Origin: Candidatus Moraniibacteriota bacterium
GTDB lineage: Bacteria > Patescibacteriota > Minisyncoccia > Moranbacterales > UBA1568
Reading direction: 5' to 3'
Assembly: GCA_052035095.1 (NCBI GenBank)
Contig: JBPOHW010000008.1
Location: 3,060 to 67,059, forward strand
Length of the DNA: 64,000 nt
Below the pieces are notes generated by a model. The model saw only the letters and a list, made by a program, of their open reading frames with translations, made no database searches and was not told where the DNA came from. Each line of letters opens with the position of its first letter. The stretch's first letter is position 1. Positions 512 through 20,211 of the stretch are shown in pieces. Both the position numbers and the translations under genes were made by a program.

Positions 512-724
512 TTGAAACCTATGAAAAGACAACCAAAACCAAAAGAAAAAGCATCAGAGATTCTGACGCTTCAGGAGGCGTGCGAGATTCTGCATTGCCA
601 TCCGAACACGCTTCGCAACTGGGACAACAAAGGATTTTTGAAAGCGATTCGGTTTGGGACACGGGGGGATAGGAGGTATCGGAGGGGAGAGGTGATAGGG
701 ATTCTTGATCGTGGGAAGGAGTGA
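512..724 (+). CDS. small HTH DNA-binding protein, excisionase/AlpA/MerR-like
   Basis: 70 aa; LTLQEACEILHCHPNTLRNWDNKGFLKAIRFG matches the excisionase-family helix-turn-helix. Stop lies 20 bp before the next ATG, which has an AAGAGGA RBS, so the two are operonic. Confidence 0.6.
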   Translation: MKPMKRQPKPKEKASEILTLQEACEILHCHPNTLRNWDNKGFLKAIRFGTRGDRRYRRGEVIGILDRGKE

Positions 725-743
725 TTCTTACAAAGAGGATAAT

Positions 744-3700
744 ATGAAATGGATCAACGCTAGCGACATCACGAATTGGGCGAATACAAACCAAAGACAA
801 TGTCAGGATACATTGCCGGAGTTGGTGCGTCGTCTTATTTTGGCTCACACCGTAAACGCCGTTGATAAATTTGATTTCCCCAGCGGCGATAGCGTCGCTA
901 CCGGTGGATGGGATGGTCGTCTTAAGACACCTGTTGTTTCGCCATTCTTTCCAAGCAGCCATTCCGGCTGGGAAATCGGAACTGAAAAGTCAGCTCAAAA
1001 AAAAGCAGAAGCAGACTATACAAAGCGAAGTGCGGATCCGTTAGGAATGGTACTCAATGAGACAACGTTTGTTTTTGTTACTCCACGATCGTTTCCAAAA
1101 CGTGCAAACTGGCAAAGCACAAAACAATCCACCAACACATGGAAAGATGTCAAAGTTATTGCCGCTGATGGATTAGAGCAATGGCTTGATAATACGCCAG
1201 CCGTTGCTTCGTGGTTTGCCCGTAAGATCAGCAAGGTCGTCTCGAATGGTATTCGGGATATTGAGGCTGTTTGGGAAGAGTGGTCGATAGGAACGAAGCC
1301 GGTGATGACACCAGCTCTCGTAATAGGTGGACGCACGACAGACGTCGAAGCCATTCAGAAATGGATCGCCGAAGCGCCGAGAATTCTTGAGGTACGAGGT
1401 GATCATCCAGATGAGGCATTTGCTTTTCTTTATGCTTCCATTGCAATGCTCCCCGAGACTGAAAGAGCACAGACGTTGGCTCGATGTTTAGTTGTTGAGA
1501 ATATCGGCGAGTTACGGGAATTAACCCAAGCTTTTCAAAATTATCCACTAATCATCGCTGCACCCGGCGAATGTATCAACGCCGCTTCTCTCGCTGTTTC
1601 CAAAGGCCACCATGTATTTATAAGCATGAACGCAACAGTTATTGGTTTTAGGGATATTCTTCGACTAGCTCGGCCGCAACGCGGTGCGGTAGAAAATATT
1701 TTACATGAGGGCGGCTTATCAGAAGCTGACGCACAGCGCATGGCCAGGGATTCCGGGCGTAGTATTCCCGTACTTCGCCGACATTTATTTCAATCCAATG
1801 CCGTTAGTGCTCCGGTATGGGCTAATGCCAAATCAGCACGGATACTCTTACCAGTTTTATTTGCCAACGCATGGGATGAGTACAAAGACGGAGATCGCAA
1901 AGTAATAGAGACCCTTTCCGGTATGAGCCATGACGACTTTGTTAAAGCTCTCACCCCTTTTTTATCTGTAGACGATTCTCCCATTCGCAAGGTTGGTAGT
2001 GTTTGGATGATCAAGTCTCCCTTGGACGCATGGTTTCTTCTCGCGCCACATCTTACACAGGATTCCTTAAAACTTTTTGAGCAGTCTTTATTGGGCGTCC
2101 TCACAAAGACAGATCCAAAATACGAATTGGAGGCGGACAAGCGATGGGCAGCTGCAATATATGGTAAATCAAATGCGTATTCTGAATGGCTTCGGAGTGG
2201 CTTTGTTGAATCGTTGGTGCTTCTTACCGTTTTCGGCAATCGCTCCCCACAAGTCCCATCCACACAGACGTTTGCGGATCATGTTGTCAAACAAGTATTT
2301 GCCACAGCGGATAAATGGGAGGCATGGGCTTCGATAAAGGACGCAACCCCATTATTTTCAGAAGCCGCACCGGATACATTCATGGAGGCGGTCGAACAAG
2401 GTATCGCAAAAACCCCGACTATCTTCCAAGAATTAATGAAGGATAGTGGGAGTGTATTTGGAGAGTGTCATCATTCCGGTCTTCTTTGGGCACTTGAGAG
2501 TATAGCGTGGAGTCAAGATTATTTTGCGCGAGCTGTAAACGTTTTGGTGGAGTTAGCCAATATAGATCCAGGCGGCAAATGGAGCAATCGAGCAATAAAT
2601 AGTATTAAAAACGTTTTCTTGCCACGTTTTCCGCAAACATACGCTACACCGGAACAACGTCTTGCGGCTTTGGATTCCCTTATCGCCAAATTTCCTAAAA
2701 AAGTTTGGGAATTCTCGCAAGGTTATTACAGTGGCGGAAGTTTTAGTGAATCACATCGCTTTCGTTGGCGCGACGCCGGTGGCAATCGCCGCGGATTGGA
2801 GCCGGAAGATAATGAGAACAATCGCGAATATCTCAATGCTCTCCTCCCCAAATTAATTGATCTTGCTGTTGCAAAAGAAAATCTCATAGCTTCTGCCGAT
2901 GAATTCACACAACTGCCGGACGATATACAGGAGCGATTACTTGGTGTACTTGAAAAAACAGATCCCGCTACTTTTTCAAAAGATGAACGTGCAAAGCTTC
3001 TGCAATGTATCCGAGAGGCATTGAATTGGACAAATAGCTACGGTGATGAAGATCGTCGCAAACAAGTGCCAGCTCTTAATCGAGTCTTGGAAAGATTCAC
3101 GCCGGAGGATGTGATTGAGCGTGTGGGTTGGTTATTGGGCAATCCGTGGCCACGGTTACCACAAGGAGAGCCTAAACAATATGACGCCAAAGATACAGCT
3201 GTTAAAACGGCGCAACAAGAAGCCGCACGCGAGGTACTGGATAAAGCGTCTTTGGATGAAATTTTTAAATTTGCCGGTACGATTCAGTATCAGGGAATTC
3301 TCGGTCATTCTCTCGCAAAAGCGGTGCGTGATGAAAAAGAGGATAGTACTGTGTTAGATGGCATATTGTCCCATATTACTGATATGCCGATTCTCATTCG
3401 GGGATACGCTGATGGCCGAGTTGAAGTTGCCGGGCCCGGTTGGATAGATACGCAGATCGAGAGAATGAAAACAAAAGGAAACTATTCGCCGCAGGCATGT
3501 GCGCTTCTGTATTTTGGTATACCAGAGGGTGCATCTACATGGTCGGCAGTTTCCGCCCATGGCAAAGATGTTGAGAGTACATATTGGAAGCAAGCAAGCG
3601 GATTCTCACAGACCAGTAAAGCAGATGATACTCCCATTGCCGTTGAAAAGTTATTGGATGTTAAACGACCGGAGGCCGCACTTCAAATTGCTGGTGATCC

Positions 3701-4532
3701 CCAAGTATCTATTCCAAGTGCGTTACTCCAACGATTGCTCCAAGAGCTTCTGATGATGGAAGATAAAAAGCTTCGTGCTGGAGTAATGGAAGAATTTCAT
3801 TTGGGGCACGTATTCAATCAGCTGTACGAAAAGAACGAACTATCAATTGAAGAAATGGCAAAATTAGAATGGCCATTTGCCGCACTCTTTGAGGAACTCA
3901 AGCAGTACACTTCTCATCCAATGGCACTTCATCGTGTTCTACAAAAAGATCCTCAATTTTTCTCCCAACTTATTACATTCATCTACAAACGAGATGATCA
4001 TGCGCCGGATTCTACTCGTGGCGATGTAGATGAGGAAACGGCGGAGCGACGCGCGCGCGTCGCTCATGAAGTCTTGAATTCTTGGTATCTCATACCCGGG
4101 TTAAAAGAGGACGGTACGCTTGATGAAAAAGAACTTACCGAATGGGTTGAGGCGGCACGCAAACAATGCACAGAAACCAATCATATAATAGGGTGCGATT
4201 TGCAGATTGGCTTCATGTTTGCTCATATACCGGGAGATCCCGACGGCACATGGCCACACGTTGGTGTTCGCAACCTTATAGAGCGCCTAAACAACGAAAC
4301 TATTGATCGGCATATTCAAAATGAGATTTATAATAGTCGCGGCGTTGTTTCAAAGAGCATCAATGACGGAGGTAAACAAGAGCGAGCACTTTCTGAAAAG
4401 TATAAAAAAATGAGCGAAGCCGTTAATTCAAAATGGCCACGTACCGCCGCCATGCTTCGCTCGATAGCTAAATCTTACGAACAACAAGCCAAGAGCGAGG
4501 ATATTGATTCAGATTTATATGATGTACGATAG
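744..4532 (+). CDS. large hypothetical protein, about 1262 aa, no recognisable catalytic motif, predicted mostly alpha-helical
   Basis: Uninterrupted 3.8 kb ORF. ATG at 744 is preceded by AAGAGGA. It follows the HTH gene and ends at a bidirectional terminator. No Walker, HxH, radical-SAM or other motif seen by eye. Confidence 0.7.
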   Translation: MKWINASDITNWANTNQRQCQDTLPELVRRLILAHTVNAVDKFDFPSGDSVATGGWDGRLKTPVVSPFFPSSHSGWEIGTEKSAQKKAEADYTKRSADPLGMVLNETTFVFVTPRSFPKRANWQSTKQSTNTWKDVKVIAADGLEQWLDNTPAVASWFARKISKVVSNGIRDIEAVWEEWSIGTKPVMTPALVIGGRTTDVEAIQKWIAEAPRILEVRGDHPDEAFAFLYASIAMLPETERAQTLARCLVVENIGELRELTQAFQNYPLIIAAPGECINAASLAVSKGHHVFISMNATVIGFRDILRLARPQRGAVENILHEGGLSEADAQRMARDSGRSIPVLRRHLFQSNAVSAPVWANAKSARILLPVLFANAWDEYKDGDRKVIETLSGMSHDDFVKALTPFLSVDDSPIRKVGSVWMIKSPLDAWFLLAPHLTQDSLKLFEQSLLGVLTKTDPKYELEADKRWAAAIYGKSNAYSEWLRSGFVESLVLLTVFGNRSPQVPSTQTFADHVVKQVFATADKWEAWASIKDATPLFSEAAPDTFMEAVEQGIAKTPTIFQELMKDSGSVFGECHHSGLLWALESIAWSQDYFARAVNVLVELANIDPGGKWSNRAINSIKNVFLPRFPQTYATPEQRLAALDSLIAKFPKKVWEFSQGYYSGGSFSESHRFRWRDAGGNRRGLEPEDNENNREYLNALLPKLIDLAVAKENLIASADEFTQLPDDIQERLLGVLEKTDPATFSKDERAKLLQCIREALNWTNSYGDEDRRKQVPALNRVLERFTPEDVIERVGWLLGNPWPRLPQGEPKQYDAKDTAVKTAQQEAAREVLDKASLDEIFKFAGTIQYQGILGHSLAKAVRDEKEDSTVLDGILSHITDMPILIRGYADGRVEVAGPGWIDTQIERMKTKGNYSPQACALLYFGIPEGASTWSAVSAHGKDVESTYWKQASGFSQTSKADDTPIAVEKLLDVKRPEAALQIAGDPQVSIPSALLQRLLQELLMMEDKKLRAGVMEEFHLGHVFNQLYEKNELSIEEMAKLEWPFAALFEELKQYTSHPMALHRVLQKDPQFFSQLITFIYKRDDHAPDSTRGDVDEETAERRARVAHEVLNSWYLIPGLKEDGTLDEKELTEWVEAARKQCTETNHIIGCDLQIGFMFAHIPGDPDGTWPHVGVRNLIERLNNETIDRHIQNEIYNSRGVVSKSINDGGKQERALSEKYKKMSEAVNSKWPRTAAMLRSIAKSYEQQAKSEDIDSDLYDVR

Positions 4533-4559
4533 ATTCAGAAATGACATTCGTTCTAAAAA

Positions 4560-4607
4560 ATATCCGAGCCGTCAACCAAATCGGCTCGGATATTTTTCTT
4601 TGTTTTC
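4560..4607. terminator. bidirectional rho-independent terminator between convergent genes
   Basis: Stem ATATCCGAGCCG, loop of 9 nt, stem CGGCTCGGATAT, then TTTTCTTTGTTTT. A-run on the other side. Confidence 0.55.
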
Positions 4608-4613
4608 ATTTTT

Positions 4614-5093
4614 TCATTCACGAATACCAATAACCTTGATCAGCGATAACACCTCTCCGATTTTTACTTCTCTCACCTCACCGACAGACGCGCCCATAAG
4701 CGGAGCCACGAAAGGCGCGGCGTAGGAAAATTCGTTCGGGTCTGTTTTTTCGAGAACCATGTAGCTCCCAACGACGACAACTTTTTCCTCGTGAGTATCC
4801 GTGTTCTGTATTGTGACTTTTGATCCGAGAGAGACATGCTTCGCGTGAACTGACGGCTCAACTATTTCAGCCCGTGCGTAAACTTTTTTCAATTCTTCGA
4901 GCGTACTGGCAAGCCTTTTTCTTTCCCGATCGGCTTCTTCAAAACCGTAGTTGTCATGCCACGTTTCCGAGCTCTGATGCGACATTTCCCCAACTTCAAA
5001 ACCAACCGTTTTCAGATTGTTTTTGAGCGCGTCGATATTTTTCTCAAGCGCCAAATAATCTTTTCGAAGAAAAAGGAATGATGCGTCTTTCAT
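4614..5093 (-). CDS. greA: transcription elongation factor GreA
   Basis: 159 aa. N-terminal coiled coil and C-terminal FKBP-like domain (GSKVTIQN...VVVVG...PLMGASVGEV) typical of GreA/GreB. Confidence 0.85.
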   Translation of the reverse strand: MKDASFLFLRKDYLALEKNIDALKNNLKTVGFEVGEMSHQSSETWHDNYGFEEADRERKRLASTLEELKKVYARAEIVEPSVHAKHVSLGSKVTIQNTDTHEEKVVVVGSYMVLEKTDPNEFSYAAPFVAPLMGASVGEVREVKIGEVLSLIKVIGIRE

Positions 5094-5617
5094 ATTGAAG
5101 ACTGTTCAATCTCAAGCATGAGAGCGACATATCCCTTTCGAATAATATTATCGCTTTGAATCCCGAGACTTACAAGAAGATTCATTATTTTTTCCTCTAT
5201 ATTTTCTCGACTCTCTTCATCGCCTCGCCCTTCGATCTCAACAAAGACTCCGAGATTTTCTATTTCATCAACATTGATTTCAAAATCTTCAAGACGATAG
5301 CTTGCTCGGCGTTTCTTGATTTCAACCACCTTTACATAGCCGCTCCCAAGAAGAAGCTGTTGGAGACCGTCGGAATCAGTGAGCGGAATATCAATATCCG
5401 GCCACGCGGTATCGTCGCCCAGAGCCTTGCCCTTGAACGTTAGTAATGACCCGTTTTCCTTCCGCCGAATACGCAAAATGAGCGAGCGATCTCTGTCGCT
5501 TTCATGGCGAAGATAAAAATCATGTTCGTTTGACGTTCCCCTGTGCTCTGCTTGTGTCGCCAAGGCGTTCCTTATTGCGTCGGGATCGTCAACGCTTGCC
5601 CGGAGCTCTATTTCCAT
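5090..5617 (-). CDS. CYTH-domain protein (triphosphate tunnel metalloenzyme, class IV adenylate cyclase / thiamine-triphosphatase fold)
   Basis: 175 aa with MEIELRA...E.E start and acidic/basic strand pattern of the CYTH fold. Its stop overlaps the greA start by 4 nt. Confidence 0.7.
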   Translation of the reverse strand: MEIELRASVDDPDAIRNALATQAEHRGTSNEHDFYLRHESDRDRSLILRIRRKENGSLLTFKGKALGDDTAWPDIDIPLTDSDGLQQLLLGSGYVKVVEIKKRRASYRLEDFEINVDEIENLGVFVEIEGRGDEESRENIEEKIMNLLVSLGIQSDNIIRKGYVALMLEIEQSSI

Positions 5618-5714
5618 AAATATGGCTTTACTTGAGGGAATGTTAGCGCATTTTTCTCAAAAAGAAAAGGCTAGCGCGTTGCGTTAGCCTCTGGTTTGTT
5701 GTGAGCTTTCTTTC

Positions 5715-6671
5715 CTACAGTTCTTTGCTCAATTCTTGAGCAATAGGGTGAGAAAAGTAGGCGTGAATCGGAAGAGAGAATGGCGGACCATCGCGGTGTA
5801 CGCAGTTTCGTACCATGAGCATTCCACGTTCCATTTCAAGTCTCGGACCGTACGCGAATTCATAGCACCCGCCATATATCCTCAGTTCGCAATTGGCGCA
5901 CATGCCTTCCAAAAAATGTGGCTGGATGAGTTTCAATTTGAAGGCAAACCCGTCTTCACAGCGCATATCAATGGAACAGCTCGAGCGTCCCCGAATGACA
6001 GACGCCCGCGTCGGAGTTGCTCCAAGCGTTTGGCACGCTCTTGCGAGAGAGGCATACGAGATTTCCGGAATTTCCAGCACGTTCATGAGACGCCACGAAA
6101 TATCTCTGTGTCTCACAAAGTCAGCAAGCGCGATCGCCGGCTGTTCCGTTTCGCCAATGCATGTATTGATCTTGAGACGAACCTTTCCATTGAGAGTCTC
6201 AATGAGATTGATTTGTTTCTCAAGCGCCTTTTTGCCCCACGCCGCATCTTTGGGCGGTGACATTATCTTCCCCAATTCCGCTGGGTCAAGAGTGTGAACG
6301 CTCATGTTGAGCTCATCGAGTCCCGACCATATGCACTCGAAATATCGCGAGTGCTTTGCCTGTCCGTTCGTTGTCATCTTCACTGTGAATCCCAAGCTCT
6401 TTGCCTTCACAATGAACTGGGTGATCTCGGGATGAATTGATGGCTCACCTCCGGTGAAATGCACTTCGGTAAATCCGAAGCGATCACGGAAGCGTACAAG
6501 CACATCGGAAAACTGCTTGTCATTCCGAATCGGTTGCGATGAGGGGTTGCCTTCCATGTGACAGAAATTGCATGTCCACTGGCACGGCACATGAAGCTTC
6601 ACGCGGAGGCTGTTGAGACGAGTCGTCTCTACTTTTCCCTGCGAAAGCAATTCTTCAAAAACATCATACAT
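5715..6671 (-). CDS. radical SAM enzyme, MoaA-like, with C-terminal auxiliary Cys cluster
   Basis: CQWTCNFC (CX3CX2C), FTGGEP, TTNG and C-terminal CANCELRIYGGC (CX2CX7C) resembling the MoaA auxiliary-cluster motif CxxCNRLR. Start is 2 nt after the kinase stop. Confidence 0.8.
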   Translation of the reverse strand: MYDVFEELLSQGKVETTRLNSLRVKLHVPCQWTCNFCHMEGNPSSQPIRNDKQFSDVLVRFRDRFGFTEVHFTGGEPSIHPEITQFIVKAKSLGFTVKMTTNGQAKHSRYFECIWSGLDELNMSVHTLDPAELGKIMSPPKDAAWGKKALEKQINLIETLNGKVRLKINTCIGETEQPAIALADFVRHRDISWRLMNVLEIPEISYASLARACQTLGATPTRASVIRGRSSCSIDMRCEDGFAFKLKLIQPHFLEGMCANCELRIYGGCYEFAYGPRLEMERGMLMVRNCVHRDGPPFSLPIHAYFSHPIAQELSKEL

Positions 6672-6673
6672 GA

Positions 6674-7249
6674 TTATCGCTCCTGTAAAAGCAATGACAC
6701 TTGCGCCTCGACTTGCTCCGCCGAGAGGTGATCGGTTTCAAGCACAAGCGACCATTGATGAGAATCCATGAAAGCCTTCTGCGCTCGATCAAGCAATCCG
6801 ACAGACTGCTCGATACGCTGATCATAGTCCTGCGATCCATCTCGCTTGTTTCTCCTTTCGGTTCTCGTTTTCGACGTAGCCGTAAGGAGTACGGAAACCG
6901 TCGACCAGAGAATGGGCAATTTTTCGGTATTTACAGAAGATACATCTACGCCAAGCACATGGTGCATGACGAGAGTCGAGTGAATATACCGATCAATAAC
7001 AACGCTCCTCCTCAAATCGATATCCGATCGGATTTTTCTCTGAACGGCAATAACCGAAGTAAGATAGTAGAAAAACCGAGTGTTTGAATCATCCAAAGAC
7101 TCTATCTCTTTGCGAATTGTTGAAAGAGGCGGTTGCGGCGTGTAGAGATATCGGAAACCGAGTTTTGAAGCGATGGCTTTGGCAAGGGTTGTTTTACCAA
7201 CACAATCCACACCCTCTACAACCAGAATTACCGGACTGGCATTTTGCAT
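6674..7249 (-). CDS. thymidylate kinase family nucleotide kinase (TMK-like)
   Basis: P-loop VVEGVDCVGKTT and DRY motif (VVIDRYIHST) typical of the dTMP kinase family; 191 aa. Confidence 0.75.
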   Translation of the reverse strand: MQNASPVILVVEGVDCVGKTTLAKAIASKLGFRYLYTPQPPLSTIRKEIESLDDSNTRFFYYLTSVIAVQRKIRSDIDLRRSVVIDRYIHSTLVMHHVLGVDVSSVNTEKLPILWSTVSVLLTATSKTRTERRNKRDGSQDYDQRIEQSVGLLDRAQKAFMDSHQWSLVLETDHLSAEQVEAQVSLLLQER

Positions 7250-7264
7250 GAGCGTTCTCCGCTA

Positions 7265-7762
7265 TCATTGAATTTCGCTGATTTCCCATGCTCCTTTGAG
7301 CACAGAACATTCGATCTCTTCTCCGTTTCCTTTTCCGAAAAGCGCTTTGCCAATCGGAGAAGATGGGCTTATCGCTGAAACTTTTTCACCCCCATAAGAG
7401 GGGTGCAAAAAAACTCCGCCACCTGCTCCTTCAGAAACGAGAAGAAACAGTTTTCTTTCCGCAGTATCAATATTCTCAATAGCCACTACAGAGCCGATAG
7501 AAACCTGATTGGAAACATCAGCATCTCTCTGGAGAAGGCTCTCAAGTAAAGCGAGAACAGTTTTTGCTTCAAGCAATCGCTTATTCTGCCCGCCCGCGAG
7601 ATATTGAGCTTCTTCGAGAAAAGTATCATAGCGAGAAATCATCGCGCCTTCCGCTTCTTGCGCGTCTTTGAGTGACACTTGTCTCGCTTGCTCGGTTCTT
7701 TCGATCTCTTCTCTCTTGTTCGCGATAATCTGCGCGAACAAGATTTTTGCTGTTTCGTGCAT
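7265..7762 (-). CDS. GreA/GreB-family transcription factor paralog
   Basis: 165 aa. Coiled-coil N-terminus plus FKBP-like C-terminal domain (GSVVAIENIDTAERKLFLLVSEGAGGG...SPIGKAL). It is the second Gre homolog in the same operon. Confidence 0.7.
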   Translation of the reverse strand: MHETAKILFAQIIANKREEIERTEQARQVSLKDAQEAEGAMISRYDTFLEEAQYLAGGQNKRLLEAKTVLALLESLLQRDADVSNQVSIGSVVAIENIDTAERKLFLLVSEGAGGGVFLHPSYGGEKVSAISPSSPIGKALFGKGNGEEIECSVLKGAWEISEIQ

Positions 7763-7914
7763 GATTCTCTCCTTTTTTTCTCTTCAATTAGTAAGATACT
7801 CGTCTTAAAATTAAGACCTCGTACAATAGCACGTTTAATAATTATAAGTCAATATCCGTGACTATTTTATGGCTTTACTGTGGAATTTTCGCGTAAATTA
7901 GTCAAAAAACTACC

Positions 7915-8025
7915 CCATCATAAGTCGCTCCATCCGTTCCTGCAAAACTTTCAGCCCATTGCCACATTCAAGCCAGTTTGAGAGAATACGAAGGAAGAAA
8001 TCGTTCCCATGTGTACTCCCCTGTT
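7915..8025 (+). repeat. about 95 bp intergenic repeat, copy 1 of 3
   Basis: Core CAGCCCATTGCCACATTCRAGCCAKTTTGAGAGAATACG..GG.AGAAAT.GT.CCCATG.GTAC shared with the copies near 9655 and 12185. Confidence 0.8.
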
Positions 8026-8178
8026 TCAGTAGTTGAAAAAGGATGCAGGACTTTTTCTATTTCCAAAGCAACTCAAAAAATAACTTATACACCGCGCATC
8101 ATAAAGCCGGACAGAATAAACTTCCCGTCCTTTTACTTGAAGCAAATTCTTTGTTTGAAAAGTTCGCTTTCATAATGT

Positions 8179-8535
8179 TTGCGGTATAGTCAAACTTTTA
8201 TGGAGAAGAAAACTTTTATTGTAGGCTCAGTGCTATTGGTTACGATGGCAGTGCTTTTTGACGGCTTTATGAGCACAGCATACCTATTAGGAAGTTTCGT
8301 CTTATGTTGGGCAGTTTATTATGGAGTTAGATATACAGGGTTAACTCGAGCAAAGAGTATTAATCCAAAACAAATAGTTCACATGGCGCTTGCAACTTCA
8401 ATCCTGATTCTGACAGGTATCACATTTATTTTCGGAACAGGAATCAACTTAATTGTCTATGCCGTCTGGCTCGTCTTCTTCTATTGGCACGAGTTGTCTT
8501 CCTTGAAACTAAAAAAAACTGCTTTGATTGAATAG
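8179..8535 (+). CDS. small integral membrane protein
   Basis: 118 aa with three or four hydrophobic helices; no known motif. Confidence 0.45.
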   Translation: MRYSQTFMEKKTFIVGSVLLVTMAVLFDGFMSTAYLLGSFVLCWAVYYGVRYTGLTRAKSINPKQIVHMALATSILILTGITFIFGTGINLIVYAVWLVFFYWHELSSLKLKKTALIE

Positions 8536-8635
8536 TTTTTTACTTCATTGACATCAAATGATTCTTCATCTTTTTTGGATTATTGATTTATAAATGTGGA
8601 ATCGAGACACAATTATACTTTGAAATGAGGACATT

Positions 8636-9205
8636 ATGATTGATACTACTCTTTACATTTTTGTTATTTATCCACTGGGCATCTTCATAGGCTTCGCCTC
8701 TTTTACGATGATATGGATGCCTATTCTAATTGGGATACCAATGGCCACCTACTGGTCATTGAAAGGGTGTGTACGATATAGAAGCATATTCTCCTATATA
8801 CCAAGTATTATATTTGGTTTTGTTTTATTCACACTTATTGGCTTTTTCTTTTTGAGAATTCTTCCTGCAATTGGAGAGAACAATGGATTTTATGTGGCGC
8901 AAATAATCGGCAGTCTATTTGCACTATTTTATTGCTTAAAGAAAATGGGCAGGCGTGATGTTCAACTTGATTTTTGGACGAAAATGTTGAAGAACAAATA
9001 CATGATCTACGAACACCCTATAATTGCCGAGAAGCTTCAGTTTTTATTCGAAGAAAGATTCGGAGAAGATGCCAAAAAAATGGCTACTCAACTTATGATG
9101 GAAACGAAAGCGAAGAGAATTGATGAGCTTATAGAAAAAAGAGAAGCGTTAAAAAAGCAGATTCTTGAAAAAGTTGAAAAAAAGAAGCAAGACGGCGAAT
9201 GGTAA
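8636..9205 (+). CDS. integral membrane protein with charged C-terminal tail
   Basis: 189 aa. Four TM helices followed by a KE-rich tail. Overlaps the next gene by 7 nt. Confidence 0.45.
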   Translation: MIDTTLYIFVIYPLGIFIGFASFTMIWMPILIGIPMATYWSLKGCVRYRSIFSYIPSIIFGFVLFTLIGFFFLRILPAIGENNGFYVAQIIGSLFALFYCLKKMGRRDVQLDFWTKMLKNKYMIYEHPIIAEKLQFLFEERFGEDAKKMATQLMMETKAKRIDELIEKREALKKQILEKVEKKKQDGEW

Positions 9206-9648
9206 GTTCAAACACAAGTATTGTGAAAAACCTCTACCTCGACATTGACGGGGTGATTCTTGATAAACGAGGATGTCCCGCCTACGGCTTGGAAGGTTTT
9301 TTACGCTTTGCAATAGTCCACTTCTCTTGTTTTTGGCTCACGACGCACTGTAGCGGAAATGCGAAACTAACCTTATCCTATCTCACGTCCAAGGTGCCAA
9401 AAGAAGCTTTGGAATTGATGTCAGGCATCCGACCAACCGCATGGAGCCTTTGGAAAACAGAGGCTATAGACTTCACCAAACCATTCTATTGGCTCGATGA
9501 TTATGCCTTTGATGGAGAAAGAAAAGTCTTACGAGAACATAGATGCGAATCCTCCCTTATCTTGATAAATCTTGAGACAAACCCGAAGCAACTGGAGGCA
9601 TTGTGTAAGCAACTGAAAGAGACATTTTCAGTGGCTACCTCGCCATAA
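9199..9648 (+). CDS. HAD-superfamily phosphatase-like protein
   Basis: LYLDIDGVILD matches HAD motif I (DxDGV) and FYWLDD resembles motif IV; 149 aa. Confidence 0.5.
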   Translation: MVSSNTSIVKNLYLDIDGVILDKRGCPAYGLEGFLRFAIVHFSCFWLTTHCSGNAKLTLSYLTSKVPKEALELMSGIRPTAWSLWKTEAIDFTKPFYWLDDYAFDGERKVLREHRCESSLILINLETNPKQLEALCKQLKETFSVATSP

Positions 9649-9654
9649 TCCGTT

Positions 9655-9765
9655 CCATCCGCTCACAAATTACCTCCAGCCCATTGCCACATTCGAGCCA
9701 TTTTGAGAGAATACGGGGGCAGAAATTGTTCCCATGTGTACCCCATCGTCCCAGCAAAATAAATT
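9655..9765 (+). repeat. about 95 bp intergenic repeat, copy 2 of 3
   Basis: Same core as copy 1. Its 3' end abuts the ATG of the next gene. Confidence 0.8.
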
Positions 9766-9767
9766 GT

Positions 9768-10178
9768 ATGCTTTACAAAGTTATTCTTGTTTCTCTTCTT
9801 CATAGAAGAAACAAAAGTGAGATATTGCTCATTAAAAGAAACCGTGAACCAGAATATGGTAAATGGTCGCTTTCTGGTGGCACAGGTGCATTAGAAAAAG
9901 AGGCAGATCCCAAAAAAGCAATTTTCATGGAAGTACTCGGGGATTTCTCGACAAACATCCTTGATCCAAAGCTTTTTTCCATAAAGTATGCCAATTTTTC
10001 AGAGCCGACCCTCCATTTTTATTTTGAAGGCGAATTAGAAAGTGAACCAAAAATTCAAGATATGAAAACAGTGAAAGAACTTGGATGGTTTGTGCCAAGA
10101 GAAATTTTGAAAATGGACATCGCCTTTCAAGATATTGATAAAGAAGCCGTTAAACAATTTATGAAGAATTCAAAATAG
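9768..10178 (+). CDS. Nudix-fold protein with degenerate Nudix box
   Basis: ILLIKRNREPEYGKWSLSGG...GALEKE has the GX5E part of the box but the REx2EE part is degenerate. Start moved to ATG 9768 because upstream codons lie inside the repeat. Confidence 0.5.
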   Translation: MLYKVILVSLLHRRNKSEILLIKRNREPEYGKWSLSGGTGALEKEADPKKAIFMEVLGDFSTNILDPKLFSIKYANFSEPTLHFYFEGELESEPKIQDMKTVKELGWFVPREILKMDIAFQDIDKEAVKQFMKNSK

Positions 10179-10180
10179 TT

Positions 10181-10207
10181 CCAACTTCGTCCCACAGTCC
10201 CAGCTGA
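10181..10207 (+). promoter_or_regulatory. short conserved leader motif TTCYAACTTCGTCCCACAGYCCCAGC, copy 1
   Basis: Also present at 10713-10740 and, reverse-complemented, at 16651-16674. Each copy is 8-15 nt upstream of an ATG. Confidence 0.5.
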
Positions 10208-10215
10208 CAAACTCT

Positions 10216-10713
10216 ATGAGCGATAAAATAGAACTTGTTGATTACAAAGGGAATCCTACGCAGGTTTCTTGCTTGGGTTGCGCCCGAGAAAACGGCGAAA
10301 TGGAAAGAGTAGGCACCATACTCACCACTAAACATTTCGACGCTCACCAGGACTTTGAAATTCCTATCCCTGGCTTTATCATTATTTCTTCGAGGCGACA
10401 TTTGCAAAGCATCGATGAGTTTACTGATGAAGAAAAGCTAGATTTTATCGATACTCTTATTGCGGTGAGGACTGGGATGAGAAAGACTCTTGATATTGAT
10501 GTTGTCTATCTCATTCAAGAAGAAGATACTTCGCATCATTTCCACATTTGGGTATTCCCTCGTTATGATTGGATGGCAGAGAAATTTGGCAAGAAAACAC
10601 CTTCACTCCAACCGATTATGGAATATGCTCGTGAAAATCTAAAGACTATAGAAAATCTTAAGAAAGTTGAAGAAGCAGTCAATAAACTGAAGACTCATTT
10701 TGAAGTAAATTAG
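10216..10713 (+). CDS. HIT-family hydrolase
   Basis: Histidine triad HFHIWVFPR (HxHxHxx); 165 aa. Confidence 0.8.
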   Translation: MSDKIELVDYKGNPTQVSCLGCARENGEMERVGTILTTKHFDAHQDFEIPIPGFIIISSRRHLQSIDEFTDEEKLDFIDTLIAVRTGMRKTLDIDVVYLIQEEDTSHHFHIWVFPRYDWMAEKFGKKTPSLQPIMEYARENLKTIENLKKVEEAVNKLKTHFEVN

Positions 10714-10748
10714 TTCTAACTTCGTCCCACAGCCCCAGCACATATTCT

Positions 10749-11306
10749 ATGGTTACTATCCCTGAACAATACGCTTCTCTTATCCACATCAAATCACTTT
10801 CGTGGAAAGAAGTGTTTGACACATGGCGAAATCTGGAAGCATGGCAAGAGTCTTGGAAAGAGCATTGGACTGAACGAGGATTCAACTCATGGGATGAATG
10901 GCGCGAAGCATATGCGGCCCCACTTCATCCGGAAACACTTTCCTGGGAAATGTATCATATTACTGATCCCATTAAAGACCTCCCCCTTTTTTATGGCACC
11001 CCCACAAAAGGATGGATTGATAAAGCCTACGAGGGAGAAATAACAAAACAACTGAAAGACATTTCCAATTTACCTATTATCACTGAGAACCAGAAGGTTC
11101 TCACTATCAAACAAGCGTTTCCGAAAGAAACGATGCTTACAGGCATCGTTCATGAGGGAAAAATCGTTCTCATTGAGGGAATGCACCGTGCTAACGCACT
11201 CGCCACATGGAATCCTAAGACCCCCTTTGTTGGAAACGTCACAATCGCTCTTGTTCAGTGGGATAGCTCGATTCCGGCTCTCGGAGGAAATTACAAGGTT
11301 AAATAA
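10749..11306 (+). CDS. hypothetical protein (Trp-rich N-terminus)
   Basis: 185 aa ORF preceded by the conserved leader motif; no recognised domain. Confidence 0.45.
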   Translation: MVTIPEQYASLIHIKSLSWKEVFDTWRNLEAWQESWKEHWTERGFNSWDEWREAYAAPLHPETLSWEMYHITDPIKDLPLFYGTPTKGWIDKAYEGEITKQLKDISNLPIITENQKVLTIKQAFPKETMLTGIVHEGKIVLIEGMHRANALATWNPKTPFVGNVTIALVQWDSSIPALGGNYKVK

Positions 11307-11460
11307 AGTAAGTTTTTCTTTCATTTCTTTCCAACCCACAGTTTCGAACACATCCAATAAGCCCAGCAAATACACTGCCTATGAAAAAGAAAAAAGGCGC
11401 TGTTTACCAGTCGCCTTTTGAATTTGAAATAGTTGTCGGGAGATTATCTTTGCTCAGAGT

Positions 11461-12027
11461 CTAACACTTACCGGGATGATTCCAATCGAAGAAAACTCTT
11501 TGCTCGCGATCCGTAACATCGCCGTCGAGTTCACCAATGTCTTCTCCCGGATACATGGAATGCACGATGACTTTTGGTTGGTCGTTCTCACACCTAAACT
11601 CCACAACAAGCGTGAGTTTCTGCGTTTGAGGAGCGAGTAGGTCAGTCCGATCGCGTTTTATACGAAGTCCGAAGCTTCTGCGATTCAAGTCAAACCGCTC
11701 CAAGACCTCCGGAGCATATATTTCGATCGGAACCGTACTTTCCCAACCGATAGACTCCTTACAAGTGATTTGGATACTCTGTGTTTCAAAGATTCCCTCA
11801 CTCCACATATCGACAATGTGCTTCGAAAGCTGTTTACGAACAGTTTTATCTTGGAAAAGATTCCTCGCCGAATTCCAGCAACTGAAATTCCCCGCAAGTG
11901 CGCGAGTAGAACCGCGAAAACAGGTTGTTCTTAACCGATCCTCGGTACGACGAGGAATAACAACGCTTGCCCAAAGACTGGGGCATACTTTTATACGAAA
12001 GAACATTTCTTCCTCTCCTGCCAGCAT
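11461..12027 (-). CDS. hypothetical protein
   Basis: 188 aa ORF with moderate GC and no motif. Start uncertain. Confidence 0.3.
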   Translation of the reverse strand: MLAGEEEMFFRIKVCPSLWASVVIPRRTEDRLRTTCFRGSTRALAGNFSCWNSARNLFQDKTVRKQLSKHIVDMWSEGIFETQSIQITCKESIGWESTVPIEIYAPEVLERFDLNRRSFGLRIKRDRTDLLAPQTQKLTLVVEFRCENDQPKVIVHSMYPGEDIGELDGDVTDREQRVFFDWNHPGKC

Positions 12028-12184
12028 GAGCCAGCCTGTAAATATACAGGGAAAATCCTACCAGCCTTTGCATTCCGGTAGAATTTTCTATTATGCGGTT
12101 GACAGTGGCTTTTGTCAAACACTATTCACCGTCCGCCTTCTAAAATATCCGAATCCAAACATTAAAGCGCCAAAGTTTTTTCAT

Positions 12185-12290
12185 CCGTTCCCGAAAAACC
12201 TCCAGCCCATTGCCACATTCGAGCCAGTTTGAGAGAATACGGGGGAAGAAATCGTCCCCATGCGTACCCCACAAGTCCCAGCCAATATAT
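12185..12290 (+). repeat. about 95 bp intergenic repeat, copy 3 of 3
   Basis: Same core as the other copies. It ends at the ATG at 12291. Confidence 0.8.
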
Positions 12291-12467
12291 ATGAAGACTC
12301 CGCATACTTCGACGTATAAGGGGAAGCGTGTGTATATTCGCCTCAAAAGCGGCGAACGGATCGTGGGAAAATTCGAAGGGAAAGATACGCATTTTATGCA
12401 TATCGAAAAACGAAAAATACGAATTGCGGAAGTAAAAGCATTCGCCATCTATCGAGGAAAAACATAA
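12291..12467 (+). CDS. small Sm/Hfq-like protein (58 aa)
   Basis: VYIRLKSGERIVGKFEGKDTHFMHIE...VKAFAI resembles the Hfq Sm1/Sm2 pattern (V.I.L.NG...G.I...D.F...L......YKHAI). Start placed after the repeat. Confidence 0.35.
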   Translation: MKTPHTSTYKGKRVYIRLKSGERIVGKFEGKDTHFMHIEKRKIRIAEVKAFAIYRGKT

Positions 12468-12953: not shown

Positions 12954-14198
12954 TCATTTCTCTGCCACGGCATTTCCGGCAACCCAGCCCGTACTCCAGC
13001 AAAGTTGGAGGCTATAGCCGCCGGAAGGGCGATCGATATCGAGAACATCTCCCGCAAGATACAGATTCGGGAACAGTCTCGAACGCATTGTTTTGAAATC
13101 CACCTCTTCCGGTATAACGCCGCCACTGGTCGCAATCGCCTTGTCCTTACCAAGAAGACCGATTGCAGTCAGATGGAGATCTTTTACTGTGCGAGCCAAC
13201 ACAAGACGCGATGTTCGACTCACATTGCGTACCGGCATCTCGAAAGGAATGTTTGCAAGCGACAAAACTACGGGGATGAGAAGTGGCGGCAGGAATCCAT
13301 CCAAACTGTTTTTCACCTGCTTATTTTTTTGGCGTTCAAAAAGCTCTCGGATACGCGTATCGATTTCATCGAAAGTACTGCGCGGAAAAAGATCAAGCGA
13401 GAGCGTCACCTTGCCACGACGCAAACATTCGCCGACACATCGACTCATATTGAGCGCCAGAGGACCGCTTAATCCGAAGTGTGTAAAGAGAAGCGCTCCT
13501 TCCCGAGATTCCTTTTTCTCTCCGCTTAAAAAAACGGTCATCCTCACCTCTTCGAGACTCGCTCCCGAAATCGAGCGGATCCACGATTCGCCGACGCGTA
13601 TCGGAACCAACGCGACGCGAGATTCGGCAACCGTATGACCGATTGCCTTGAGGAAGCGAAACCCATCACCCGTTGATCCGGTTTCCGGACGTGACATCCC
13701 TCCAGTCGCGAGAACATAGGTCTGCGCCCGAAGCACCTCCTCACCCCCAAGCCGAACACCGGCAATCATCCCCTCCGCCATTTCAAATCCAGCCACCTCC
13801 GCGCCAAGCATCACGTGAACGTTTCCCACCCGCATATATTCAACCAGTACATCAAGGACGGACTGCGCTTGATCGCTTACGGGAAATACCCGTTTCTCCG
13901 CTTCAACCTTGGTCGGCATTCCACGAGTATGGAAAAACGCCAGTGTCTCCTCCACGCCAAATCGCGAAAACAGAGAAAAGAGAAACTTTGCCGCGCCTTT
14001 GAACTTCGCTGCAAAAATATTCCGATCAAATTCGGCATTCGTCACGTTACAGCGACCGCCACCCGTCAAAAGCAGCTTCGTCCCGAGAGACGCGTTTTTC
14101 TCAAGCAACACCACGCGCGCGCCACGCTCTGCCGCGCGCCCCGCCGCCATCATTCCCGCCGGTCCCCCGCCGATAATCACCACATCATATTCTTTCTC
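12954..14198 (-). CDS. NAD(P)/FAD-dependent oxidoreductase, HI0933/BaiN family
   Basis: DVVIIGGGPAGMMAA dinucleotide fold and the TGGGRCNVTN signature. Start trimmed to the MREKEYDVVIIGGG Met. Confidence 0.85.
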   Translation of the reverse strand, partial: EKEYDVVIIGGGPAGMMAAGRAAERGARVVLLEKNASLGTKLLLTGGGRCNVTNAEFDRNIFAAKFKGAAKFLFSLFSRFGVEETLAFFHTRGMPTKVEAEKRVFPVSDQAQSVLDVLVEYMRVGNVHVMLGAEVAGFEMAEGMIAGVRLGGEEVLRAQTYVLATGGMSRPETGSTGDGFRFLKAIGHTVAESRVALVPIRVGESWIRSISGASLEEVRMTVFLSGEKKESREGALLFTHFGLSGPLALNMSRCVGECLRRGKVTLSLDLFPRSTFDEIDTRIRELFERQKNKQVKNSLDGFLPPLLIPVVLSLANIPFEMPVRNVSRTSRLVLARTVKDLHLTAIGLLGKDKAIATSGGVIPEEVDFKTMRSRLFPNLYLAGDVLDIDRPSGGYSLQLCWSTGWVAGNAVAEK

Positions 14199-14275
14199 GC
14201 GCATAGAATACCGGCTACTCGCATCCGATCGTCTTCTGACTGACCACCGCTTGATCGATCGCTTGTTCGCAAAAA

Positions 14276-14349
14276 AAATTATACACCACGGTTCAGTATA
14301 CGCTATTTCCTTGTCAAACCGGTGTAAACTCACAAAAAAAATGAGGGGG
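14276..14349 (-). promoter_or_regulatory. conserved upstream block: CGGTTTGACA, 11 nt spacer, GTATACTGAACCGT, then GGTGTATAAT
   Basis: About 70 bp related to 16541-16640. Contains TATAAT/TATACT boxes roughly 70-100 bp upstream of the flavoprotein start. Confidence 0.45.
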
Positions 14350-16520: not shown

Positions 16521-16605
16521 TGTTTCTTCCATACCAAAAATAGAAAGATTACGCACTACGGTTCAGTATACACCATCCCCCTGCCAAACCGCCACAACCC
16601 CCCAC

Positions 16606-16629
16606 AAAAAAACCACCCTCTCTTGAGGG
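16606..16629 (-). terminator. rho-independent terminator (CCCTC-TCTT-GAGGG plus T7 on minus strand)
   Basis: Hairpin followed by seven T on the transcribed (minus) strand, downstream of the 16698-17309 gene. Confidence 0.55.
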
Positions 16630-16697
16630 CGGCTCATTCTGTATGGCGGGGATGCTGGGACGAAGTTAGAACGTATCTTCTTTGGACATCAGGCTAG

Positions 16698-17309
16698 CTA
16701 TTTAATCTTTGCCAATGTCTCTAAAACGCTTTTAATCTGCTGATCACTGACTTTTGCATCTTCCATAGCACTCAAGAGGCTACCGAGCTGTTGTTCATTA
16801 ATTTTGACGTTGTTCGAGGTATTTAGAATCTGCTCTAGTTGATTGTTATCAATCTTTACGTCGTTTCGAACTTCTATGTCCTGTGTAGTTAATACAGGAA
16901 TCAAAATAGCAAGAACCGAAATTGCTATTGCTATAAACGCTGAAATTTTTGCATCCTTAGCATTTTTCCGTGCAAGTCTCAGTTCCTGATAGTCAATAAA
17001 ATTAAAATGGGACTCCAGACTTATGACATATTTATTTCTCCCGTCGGCGTAGTTGTTGTAGTCGAGGATATAAAGAGCCAAAAAGAGTGTGTCTGGATTT
17101 ACTGGCCCAGCACCAGTAACACCGATGCTGTAATGGTTCTTATGAGCGATCTGTAAGTAGGTTTTAAGAACGTCTTTTTCTCTATCGCTCAAGGACAGTT
17201 CTGTGGCTTCTGTAACCTCTGAAACACTAAACCCTTGAGGATGATTTAGTCCCCATTTAATAGCTCTGATAAGAAAGCTTTCACCAATATTTTCTTCACT
17301 AGATGGCAT
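16698..17309 (-). CDS. hypothetical protein with C-terminal TM helix and coiled-coil tail
   Basis: 203 aa, AT-rich. Sits 9 bp downstream of the OLD-family nuclease gene, probably co-transcribed. Confidence 0.5.
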   Translation of the reverse strand: MPSSEENIGESFLIRAIKWGLNHPQGFSVSEVTEATELSLSDREKDVLKTYLQIAHKNHYSIGVTGAGPVNPDTLFLALYILDYNNYADGRNKYVISLESHFNFIDYQELRLARKNAKDAKISAFIAIAISVLAILIPVLTTQDIEVRNDVKIDNNQLEQILNTSNNVKINEQQLGSLLSAMEDAKVSDQQIKSVLETLAKIK

Positions 17310-17318
17310 AGTAGCAAC

Positions 17319-19151: not shown

Positions 19152-19345
19152 ATCTATCCTTTATTAAACTCTTATTAGCATCCTGATCAGCTAGCTTCTT
19201 TGAAGAAAAAAATAAGTAAATCCAGCAAGGCTATCCAGCCACATTCCCATTTCTTCTTTACCTGCTTTGACCCCGCAGTTTTTCTCAAAGTATTCCTGGC
19301 CTCTCTTAATCAATCCCTCGGAAAACTTTTGAGCTGACATAAGGA

Positions 19346-19567
19346 TTACTTCAAAAAGTGTTCGACACTTTTACCGTACAGTTGGGCAAATTTCTTTACT
19401 TCCAAGATATCGAGACGATATTCACCGGATTCGACACGAGAAATGTAGGACTGCGGACGCTTCATTTTCTTGGCAACATCAACTTGCCTGAGTCCAGCCT
19501 CGTGCCTCGCTTTGATCATCCTTTCGATGAAAATGGCGTATTCTTTTGTGCGGATTGTTCTTCCCAT
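19346..19567 (-). CDS. XRE-family HTH transcriptional regulator
   Basis: 73 aa; QVDVAKKMKRPQSYISRVESGE is a canonical XRE/Cro helix-turn-helix. Confidence 0.75.
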   Translation of the reverse strand: MGRTIRTKEYAIFIERMIKARHEAGLRQVDVAKKMKRPQSYISRVESGEYRLDILEVKKFAQLYGKSVEHFLK

Positions 19568-19635
19568 ATACTACAAACGTATATACGGGAAATCAAGAAA
19601 AAGCAGTCTCTCGTGAGACTGCTCGTTCCGTCGTG

Positions 19636-19709
19636 CGGGGACGACCGGGCTCGAACCGGCGACCTTCTGCGTGACAGGCAGACGCTCTAACCAACTGAGC
19701 TACGCCCCC
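19636..19709 (-). tRNA. tRNA-Asp (GTC)
   Basis: Cloverleaf: GGGGGCG acceptor, GCTC-AGTTGGTTA-GAGC D arm, anticodon loop CTGTCAC, T loop TTCGAGC, discriminator G. Confidence 0.9.
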
Positions 19710-19902: not shown

Positions 19903-19954
19903 GTAAAAATGGTACAGAATAAGTTTACATTACCCTGATAAAGCTGACTGGGGA

Positions 19955-20058: not shown

Positions 20059-20211
20059 AAAAAGTACCATATCGATTGGAAAGAAACAAGGGCGGGAAAA
20101 GAACCGCTCTCCCAAGAGCTTACCAGAAAGCCACAATTCTTTCAAGGGAACCTCGCCTTCAAAAGAAAGCGCCTCCTCAAAATCAAAGGAAGCGCGATAA
20201 CTCCGGAAAGG

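Follow-up and report, generated by a model that had tools for sequence, protein, structure and literature searches.

Repeats resembling serine-integrase attachment sites delimit gene cassettes at a variable locus of a Candidatus Moraniibacteriota genome

We analyzed the repeats in a 64,000-nucleotide stretch of a Candidatus Moraniibacteriota genome (GCA_052035095.1, contig JBPOHW010000008.1, positions 3,060 to 67,059), referred to as the window in the following; positions count from its first letter. The window contains an array of small gene cassettes and, on the + strand, three long repeats and three short sites of 27 nt, together with one short site on the - strand. We consider it probable that these repeats are attachment sites of integrative elements of the Candidate Phyla Radiation (CPR) that encode a large serine recombinase (LSR), and that they bound the cassettes. 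This reading is carried by the sites and their statistics, by differences between strains that are exact to the cassette, by an LSR found at the junction in relatives and by a 5-bp shift of a conserved box. According to the proposed mechanism, the 27–28 nt of shared sequence would be an attP-type left half-site mimicking the T-loop-to-acceptor end of tRNA-Gln (of tRNA-Asp for the - strand copy), and strand exchange would occur at or just past ...CCCAG(C). Each cassette would then begin with a short right arm, contain one or few genes and close with a trailing half-site, and repeated insertions at such a site combined with deletions between sites would lead to a head-to-tail array without recombinase.

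LSR integrative elements of this family are common in CPR/Patescibacteria, bacteria with tiny genomes whose gene exchange is little understood. The locus offers a mechanism defined at the sequence level, consisting of a 27-nt site, a recombinase family with over 2,000 detected homologues and an attP/attB shift of 5 bp that is diagnostic. A preliminary description made from the sequence alone had interpreted the repeats as a MITE-like element (miniature inverted-repeat transposable element) with an outward promoter or as a regulatory RNA of the 5’ untranslated region. That interpretation is partly supported by our results: the repeats are indeed part of mobile or accessory DNA, but the role of their 3’ end as a breakpoint and the serine recombinase junction in relatives had been missed.

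Long and short repeats share one 3’ end

The three long repeats are direct repeats of about 120 nt (7910–8030, 9635–9755 and 12161–12282). They had been noted before at 7915–8025, 9655–9765 and 12185–12290 with a core of 85–90% identity containing a GGGGA...TCCCC hairpin. The copies are real, with refined borders and a pairwise identity of 81–89%; the hairpin exists as well, but it is weak and poorly conserved. A 24-nt core of the long repeat gave three matches at ≤1 mismatch versus 0 expected in shuffles. Exact matches to the 26-nt motif TTCYAACTTCGTCCCACAGYCCCAGC, likewise with 0 expected in shuffles, are located at 10179–10204 and 10714–10739. This short motif had been reported at 10181, 10713 and 16651. 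Both + strand positions hold, whereas the - strand copy (16646–16672) is only a variant, GTTCTAACTTCGTCCCAGCATCCCCGC. A scan with a position weight matrix revealed a further + strand short site at 11341–11367 (s3) that had been overlooked. The octamer GYCCCAGC occurs five times in the 64 kb, every time within these sites.

In the alignment the short motif corresponds to the 3’ terminal 27–28 nt of the long repeat (GTTCCAACTTCGTCCCACAGTCCCAGC vs GTTCCCATGTGTACCCCATCGTCCCAGC), which bears out the earlier view that both repeat families converge on one functional 3’ end. Long and short sites have GTTCYAAC-N13-YCCCAGC in common. Among the sites compared, the right arms past AGC/ (the slash marks the junction) show no common consensus and no inverted GTTCNAA box; only the left arm is conserved. 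Start codons (ATG) follow the junctions at a distance of 8–16 nt, confirming the 8–15 nt given previously. We attribute this closeness to the tight packing of the cassettes rather than to a leader function. Apparent N-terminal extensions of the proteins encoded next to the repeats are artefacts of calling open reading frames (ORFs), as had been recognized, and the short opposite-strand peptide singled out at the same time is not a gene. Scans of viral contigs with the short and long cores yielded either no matches or chance matches inside phage genes.

Strains differ by whole cassettes

Loci of related strains and genomes compared with the window are numbered with the prefix L; L001 belongs to the nearest complete genome (Candidatus Moraniibacteriota, CP064994.1) and L108 to CP064974.1. 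Where strains have gained, lost or replaced a cassette, the break falls exactly at the 3’ end ...CCCAGC. Loci L002–L005, with flanks about 97.5–98% identical to the window, lack exactly positions 11368–12282, a strain-specific insertion of 915 bp that comprises the - strand gene G and long repeat copy 3. The joint across the missing insertion reads ...AAGCCCAGC/CAATATGTATG. A search of relatives for empty sites and for further copies had been proposed as a check; it yielded this joint as well as homologues at other loci, described below.

A replacement is found in L008, L091, L100 and L102, where 9756–10739 (the Nudix gene, short site s1, the HIT gene and short site s2) is exchanged for a cassette with a 76-aa ORF and an NYN gene. 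This cassette ends in a site of its own, ATTCCAACTTCGTCCCAGAGCGTCAGC/. The left edge of the exchange lies exactly past the CCCAGC of copy 2 (position 9755), and on the right the cassette joins the same right arm, ACATATTCTATG, that follows s2 in the window, so both edges fall exactly at AGC/. From these edges we therefore define a cassette as a short right arm, its gene or genes and a trailing site. L001 is 88% identical to the window at 4612–8019, and synteny breaks off no more than about 11 nt from where copy 1 ends, the terminal bases of this copy being degenerate. The single copy of L001 ends in GTCCCAGC/ and is followed by a terminator and unrelated DNA.

A large serine recombinase adjoins the junction in relatives

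A link to an enzyme comes from L070, which is syntenic to window positions 6142–8019. Here the repeat end GTCCCAGC/ is directly abutted by the gene of a 526-aa LSR on the opposite strand (L070: 1767–3347, - strand; Pfam Resolvase, Recombinase and Zn_ribbon_recom), the ORF of which crosses the junction. At the position of copy 1, L001 and L070 each have a single copy. Short-type sites are abutted by the LSRs of L075 and L076 (57% and 90% identical to the L070 LSR) and also adjoined by an LSR in L106. In L083 an LSR 87% identical to that of L070 abuts a tRNA-Gln gene (...CTCCCCAGCCA), and L075 encodes a second and more distant LSR that is located directly at another tRNA-Gln. The order in L075 is tRNA-Gln, LSR2 with cargo, short site, LSR1 with cargo. 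L075 is thus a tandem array, the first element of which ends distally in the short site.

Over 2,000 homologues of the L070 LSR were detected; where a source name is given, it is mostly CPR/Patescibacteria. Apart from one fragment, the best 120 homologues align over 90–96% of the query (about the first 490 residues) and then diverge. In 51 of these 120 the diverging tail is an antisense tRNA 3’ end (...GNW/LRDQDSNLEPID), TGG being the complement of CCA and DSN corresponding to the T-loop. In another 9 it is the antisense of a window-like, P-type site (...LGVWDEVRNYL, ...LLDAFRTIDW). Most of the best-matching homologues abut tRNA 3’ ends.

The recombinase ORF extends at its 3’ end across the crossover point. 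Its C-terminal tail is therefore exchanged on integration, which rewrites the last 10–40 residues (L070 LSR; proteins P0001–P0120), and integrated copies continue into antisense tRNA. LSRs adjacent to P-type sites have the motif D-x-(F/V/Y)-R-T-x-x-W in common in their tails, also where overall identity is down to about 50%. The elements of L076, L083 and L106 have in common three small or uncharacterised ORFs, a tyrosine recombinase (Phage_integrase) and the serine recombinase; those of L076 and L083 additionally encode a DNA methyltransferase, an SNF2 helicase and an HTH_17 protein, the last being a candidate directionality factor.

The sites mimic tRNA ends with a shift of 5 bp

The ...CCCAGC sites mimic the 3’ end of tRNA-Gln and the ...CCCCGC site that of tRNA-Asp, their first 17 nt being identical. 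They differ from tRNA ends in being 5 nt longer and in having a distinct middle segment, and the T-loop-like GTTCNAA box is located 5 bp further out. The GTTC box and the junction are 22 nt apart in both tRNA-Gln and tRNA-Asp versus 27 nt in the window sites. From GTTC to the ‘GN’ codons of the LSR we counted 24 nt at tRNA-Gln and 29–30 nt at window-type sites. The same difference is seen in the proteins: among the 120 best LSR homologues the T-loop core is offset by 56 from a conserved Pro-Phe anchor in 47 of 51 tRNA-type tails, and by 61 in 7 of 9 P-type tails. For serine integrases, the zinc-ribbon domain has been described as displaced by 5 bp between the half-sites, contacting attP bp 16–24 vs attB bp 11–19 (Rutherford et al. 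2013, PMC3783163). When AG is taken as the centre, the arms measure about 19 nt (B-type) and about 24 nt (P-type), the usual sizes of attB and attP half-sites.

A matched pair is present in the window itself. The end of a tRNA-Asp gene (22 nt) and the - strand site (27 nt), both terminating in ...TCCCCGC, bracket a strain-specific island of 3 kb, in place of which L002–L004 contain DUF2975, a helix-turn-helix (HTH) protein and DUF4153. The OLD-family ATPase-nuclease of the island was matched by PADLOC (Old, E = 8e-29) and is also PtuA-, AriA- and GajA-like. A tRNA-Gln gene anchoring the cassette array was not found in the window.

The long form carries a promoter-like module

The long form consists of the shared half-site preceded by a conserved module of about 90 nt. 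Its best-conserved part is a promoter-like block directed toward the next cassette, whose two hexamers and TG show no change in 7 of 7 aligned copies; the two variable positions between the hexamers lie in the spacer. A diverged homologue in L111 reads TTTCCA-17-TGAGAGAAT, with one base of the -35 hexamer and 5 of the 17 spacer bases altered. In this homologue the module precedes a canonical short-type arm, which shows the long repeat to be module plus half-site. L108 and L075 have kept TTTGAGAGAAT or TTTTGAGAGATT 55–66 nt upstream of the junction. The module may be an outward sigma-70-type promoter with extended -10 element reading into the following cassette, a possibility to which we give slightly less than even chances. 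The long repeat probably acts as the expression platform of the array, because the module carries a promoter-like sequence pointing into the next cassette; in this reading the promoter would be active. Of the MITE-like element with outward promoter suggested previously, the promoter-like part is retained (7 of 7 aligned copies and one diverged homologue), but not the MITE, since terminal inverted repeats are absent.

On the - strand the long repeat has an open frame, and in 6 of 7 copies its stop coincides with the left repeat border. As a query, the 47-aa tail had no match among 5.8 billion proteins, and the synonymous fraction of this frame (0.29) was no better than that of the antisense + frame (0.31), so the idea of the long repeat as a native C-terminal recombinase tail found no support. 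A relic of the recombinase 3’ end in the middle of the repeat (GNG/L vs GNW/L) was also considered and rejected: a profile of 120 LSR C-termini had no match in any frame.

Related arrays are found in other genomes

Homologues of the long repeat are present at other loci, past trpS in L074 and within the arrays between dnaX and the flavoprotein gene of L108 and L111. Restriction of the copies to one locus, which had been named as an argument for a local duplication, is contradicted by these homologues. In L074, from another species, trpS is followed by a long repeat, a HIT gene with 86% amino acid identity to the HIT protein of the window, a site, a gene of about 260 aa, a site, an HAD gene and an acyl-carrier-like gene. 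L083 shows tRNA-Gln, the LSR with adjoining genes, an s3-type end site, then HAD, a site and Nudix. The left part of L108 comprises dnaX, HAD, a site, NYN, a site, HIT, a degenerate site and a 165-aa gene, the right part a partial long repeat, HAD and a convergent HI0933-type flavoprotein gene, which is the same right-hand anchor as in the window (12954–14333). L111 contains several short-type sites in addition to its long-repeat homologue. Sites near-identical to s3 occur in the L108 array and in L083, there at the distal end of the gene block beside the LSR gene at tRNA-Gln. The cargo accordingly includes Nudix and HIT hydrolases in the window, and HAD and NYN genes in the related arrays.

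Upstream of the HIT gene the neighbour differs among all three arrays compared, and the gene is preceded by different site types in the window, in L074 (long repeat) and in L108 (s3-type), while its right arm TGACAAACTCTATGAGCG travels with it. We also considered whether a cassette always moves with its own trailing site. This does not hold strictly, as HIT is followed by an s2-type site in the window and L074 vs an s3-type site in L108. In L109–L114 the HIT gene lies beside the same flavoprotein anchor, with sites in L111, L112 and L114. Between the NYN and HIT genes of L109 (7510–8000; also in L110–L114) we noticed by eye a fragment resembling the N-terminus of an IS30-type transposase; no att-type site precedes the HIT gene with this IS30-like fragment in L109–L114.

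Alternative explanations and points against an LSR origin

The repeats could instead be a promoter with a 5’ leader copied in front of several genes, the breakpoints simply being the places where the shared sequence stops. The TTGCCA-17-TGaGAGAAT element conserved in every long copy fits this explanation, as do the location of the sites 8–16 nt ahead of ATG codons and the co-orientation of cassette genes with the sites (all but one in the window; L074, L083, L091/L100). Yet the 27-nt short sites have the same exact breakpoints without any promoter-like sequence. The junctions of L070, L075 and L076 lead into the 3’ end of the antisense recombinase gene with no start codon, and site 16646–16672 is followed by a terminator and not by a gene. 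Nor is there a signal of RNA structure, as a family-specific 5’ untranslated regulatory RNA would lead one to expect. Rfam, at the gathering threshold and at E ≤ 10, found tRNAs only and no match to the repeats. On neither strand is the folding of the long repeats better than that of their shuffles (z -0.1 to +1.5), and for 7 homologous copies RNAalifold gave a consensus of -6.8 kcal/mol, in which the covariation term was -0.7 and covariation thus almost absent. As tRNA mimicry and the 5-bp shift are also left unexplained, we regard the promoter/leader explanation as improbable. Still less likely, in our view, is that the repeats are partial tRNA copies, direct repeats of tRNA-targeting tyrosine-integrase elements similar to tycheposons. 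The resemblance to the 3’ ends of tRNA-Gln and tRNA-Asp, the Phage_integrase gene that is also present in the elements of L076, L083 and L106, and partial tRNA-Met-like copies nearby (19745–19800) would agree with it. The sites, however, are not copies of tRNA ends, being 5 nt longer with a different middle segment; it is a serine and not a tyrosine recombinase gene that abuts the junction at a fixed codon, and the array lacks a tRNA-Gln anchor.

A local segmental duplication or MITE copies without current function have very little chance of being correct. All long copies lie within 4.4 kb, and in a scan of 185,579 species-representative genomes the 22-nt core was found in one genome and one place only. 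That genome, CP064994.1, the only complete related genome matched, has a single exact match, which does not fit a MITE. Moreover, the DNA between the copies is unrelated, the repeat ends (CTACC... and ...CCCAGC) are neither inverted repeats nor complementary, and homologous copies at other loci in L074, L108 and L111 together with the exact strain breakpoints already contradict this explanation. We see next to no chance for an integron or an integrase-less cluster of attC sites (CALIN) recombined by IntI, even though small, packed, co-oriented cassettes each ending in a repeat and a promoter-like element at the first site are reminiscent of one. An attC hairpin is impossible for a 27-nt site, the long repeats do not fold better than shuffles and their ends are not complementary, no tyrosine recombinase was detected in the window by tblastn, and no IntI lies beside the array.

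The attribution to LSR elements has to face a number of observations that weigh against it. No LSR or tyrosine recombinase gene was found in the 64-kb window (for the latter by tblastn with three tyrosine recombinases), so action in trans has to be assumed; we infer that recombinase-less cassettes are moved by an LSR supplied in trans and that the array grew by the insertions and deletions outlined above. Canonical sites of serine integrases have two half-sites, whereas no inverted half-site is recognisable in the right arms. P-type left arms are adjoined by LSR genes and cassettes, which is not predicted by canonical attP x attB rules; array formation would therefore need a non-canonical or relaxed choice of partners. 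The HIT gene is near-universal in Moranbacteria and not freely mobile, and parts of the array may therefore be old and fixed. The upstream part of the long repeat (about 90 nt) is conserved beyond the needs of a promoter and is open in two antisense frames. Finally, homologous recombination in shared flanks could exchange cassettes between strains, in which case only the origin of the arrangement would need a site-specific step.

Comparison with known systems

In its logic the locus is closest to composite islands of the staphylococcal cassette chromosome (SCC), to tycheposon islands and to integrons, and it differs from each in a defining feature. Pseudo-SCC elements lack a recombinase, and Ccr can act in trans. 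SCC elements carry ccr genes and have direct repeats with the integration sequence at each joint (PMC7029136). The present locus resembles SCC/SCCmec in the LSR class (one homologue of the L070 LSR is labelled ‘cassette chromosome recombinase B’ in the database), in head-to-tail stacking at one chromosomal site, in short direct repeats that bound the units and in the many units without recombinase. Flanking direct repeats are thus shared, while ccr genes and insertion at rlmH are not: the array adjoins a greA-like gene instead of rlmH/orfX, and the window holds no recombinase. Further differences are sites mimicking tRNA 3’ ends, the CPR host, one site form with a promoter-like module and units that are often single genes of 0.4–0.9 kb, compared with tens of kb for SCC.

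Tycheposons of Prochlorococcus arise by repeated integration at tRNA genes with older elements pushed outward; tyrosine recombinases are present in 910 of 937 elements and the repeats are true partial tRNAs (bioRxiv 10.1101/2020.12.28.424599). Site remnants and integrase-less cargo scattered through a hypervariable island are a likeness to the present locus (bioRxiv 10.1101/2020.12.28.424599), in which the repeats are mimics of attP type and exceed the tRNA end by 5 nt.

The sites match the half-site rule of serine integrases closely. As in the canonical architecture (Listeria A118-type integrase, Bxb1, phiC31), the half-sites measure about 24 bp (P-type) and about 19 bp (B-type) when AG is the centre, and the outer box is shifted by exactly 5 bp (PMC3783163). 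An adjacent LSR gene was found in L070, L075, L076 and L106, and the 5-bp shift in both Gln- and Asp-type sites. Two imperfectly inverted half-sites around a central dinucleotide were not found, as only the left half-site is recognisable. The present system also differs in the location of the crossover within the 3’ part of the recombinase gene, so that integration swaps the C-terminal tail, and in that the recombinase stands beside P-type as well as B-type arms.

With integrons the array shares small, co-oriented and mostly promoterless cassettes that each end in a recombination site, an outward promoter-like element at the first site and strain differences comprising whole cassettes. The enzyme class differs (serine vs tyrosine in integrons), and there is neither a single-strand hairpin site with complementary R’’/R’ and L’’/L’ boxes nor an integrase gene beside the array. 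Many dispersed copies with terminal inverted repeats, as in MITEs, are not seen either, the window copies all lying in one array; likewise a structured cis-regulatory RNA or riboswitch was not detected (Rfam E ≤ 10; RNAalifold).

One may speculate, although we think it rather unlikely, that the locus is a serine-recombinase counterpart of the integron, in which a chromosomal platform of promoter module and attP-type tRNA-mimic half-site captures, expresses and sheds single-gene cassettes equipped with no more than a trailing half-site, the recombinase acting in trans. The enzyme would then come from tRNA-targeting elements of the same family, its own C-terminal tail being rewritten at each integration. 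If single-gene cassettes do move in trans, this would be an integron-like system based on a different enzyme class. The motif GTTCNAAC-N13-YCCCAGC can serve as a search key for cassette arrays in metagenomes, and the natural pairs of attP-like and attB (tRNA) sites for an unexplored clade of serine integrases could be of interest for genome engineering.

Features of the locus and neighbouring genes

The locus of the array is hypervariable and precedes the conserved flavoprotein gene; a greA-like gene, a thymidylate kinase and a radical SAM gene are its neighbours (Table 1). All cassette genes are co-oriented with the sites except G, which has its own near-consensus promoter-like sequence. The last cassette is found in every strain variant. 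For the gene at 9199–9648 there was no Pfam match.

Table 1. Location of the sites, cassettes and associated features in the window (a slash marks the junction).
Feature	Position	Strand	Description
Long repeat copy 1	7910–8030	+	First site of the array, beside the divergent greA-like gene; 3’ half-site degenerate, GTTCCCATGTGTACTCCCCTGTTTCAGT
Promoter-like element, copy 1	7959–7987	+	TTGCCA, 17-nt spacer, TG-n-GAGAAT, toward next cassette
Cassette 1 (A-B-C)	8031–9634	+	Membrane proteins 8200–8535 and 8636–9205; gene 9199–9648 with HAD-type DxDG motif by eye
Long repeat copy 2	9635–9755	+	Closes cassette A-B-C; end GTTCCCATGTGTACCCCATCGTCCCAGC/
Promoter-like element, other copies	9684–9712, 12210–12238	+	Same TTGCCA-17-TGaGAGAAT
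Cassette 2	9756–10177	+	Nudix hydrolase 9768–10178 (Pfam NUDIX, E = 4.7e-5)
Short site s1	10178–10204	+	GTTCCAACTTCGTCCCACAGTCCCAGC/; putative attP-type left half-site mimicking the tRNA-Gln 3’ end; closes Nudix cassette
Cassette 3	10205–10712	+	HIT-family Ap4A hydrolase 10216–10713, named from the sources of homologues
Short site s2	10713–10739	+	GTTCTAACTTCGTCCCACAGCCCCAGC/; closes HIT cassette
Cassette 4 (F)	10740–11340	+	185-aa uncharacterised protein, 10749–11306
Short site s3	11341–11367	+	GTTTCGAACACATCCAATAAGCCCAGC/; closes cassette F; conservation reaches upstream to ~11320
Cassette 5 (G)	11368–12160	-	188-aa protein 11461–12027; own near-consensus promoter-like sequence 12118–12090
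Long repeat copy 3	12161–12282	+	Closes the strain-specific G cassette
Last cassette	12283–12467	+	58-aa Sm/LSM-like protein 12291–12467; Pfam LSM weak, below curated cut-off
Putative Asp-type P half-site	16646–16672	-	GTTCTAACTTCGTCCCAGCATCCCCGC/; distal end of the island; terminal TCCCCGC as in the tRNA-Asp 3’ end, GTTC box 5 nt further out
tRNA-Asp-linked island	16673–19634	-	HTH protein, OLD-family ATPase-nuclease 17319–19151, 203-aa protein; no recombinase gene
tRNA-Asp gene	19635–19709	-	3’ end GTTCGAGCCCGGTCGTCCCCGC, putative attB-type half-site pairing with 16646–16672

A missing Shine-Dalgarno sequence was considered as a peculiarity of the cassettes and rejected, since only 10 of 46 long ORFs of the window have a Shine-Dalgarno-like motif. 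Many start codons of the window are preceded by pyrimidine-rich ...YCT. Taken together, the scarcity of the motif and ...YCT before starts suggest a different mode of translation initiation in this lineage.

A third strain-variable region is located at 705–4614, left of the greA gene (4614–5093). In the window it contains a 1275-aa ORF with a weak match to PD-Lambda-4_A, and at the equivalent position L002–L007 contain genes of GmrSD type, of 576 aa and of an HTH protein. The edge of the strain variation at 4614 bears no att-like motif.

Two other repeats were noticed in the window. A 68-nt repeat with 74% identity (14274–14341 and 16544–16611) lies upstream of the - strand flavoprotein gene and of a 274-aa gene; on the - strand it reads ...TTGACA...TATACTGAACCGT.GTG..TAAT... 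and resembles a common promoter or leader. An 83-nt repeat (64–95% identical; - strand, 54091–54173, 57116–57198 and 58959–59041) encodes the P-loop N-terminus of three paralogous GTPase genes and is a coding similarity, not a mobile repeat.

Near the tRNA-Asp gene there are two tRNA-Met-like sequences (19745–19800 and 19950–20063, both - strand) that were called by neither ARAGORN nor Rfam. The first is incomplete and extends from the CAT anticodon loop to ...CCCCTGGTACCA, the second apparently a full tRNA with its D region interrupted by the 20-nt palindrome CCTGCCTGCCGGCAGGCAGG. Both have an odd long variable arm; either other integrations left them behind as scars or they are tRNAs of an unusual kind, perhaps.

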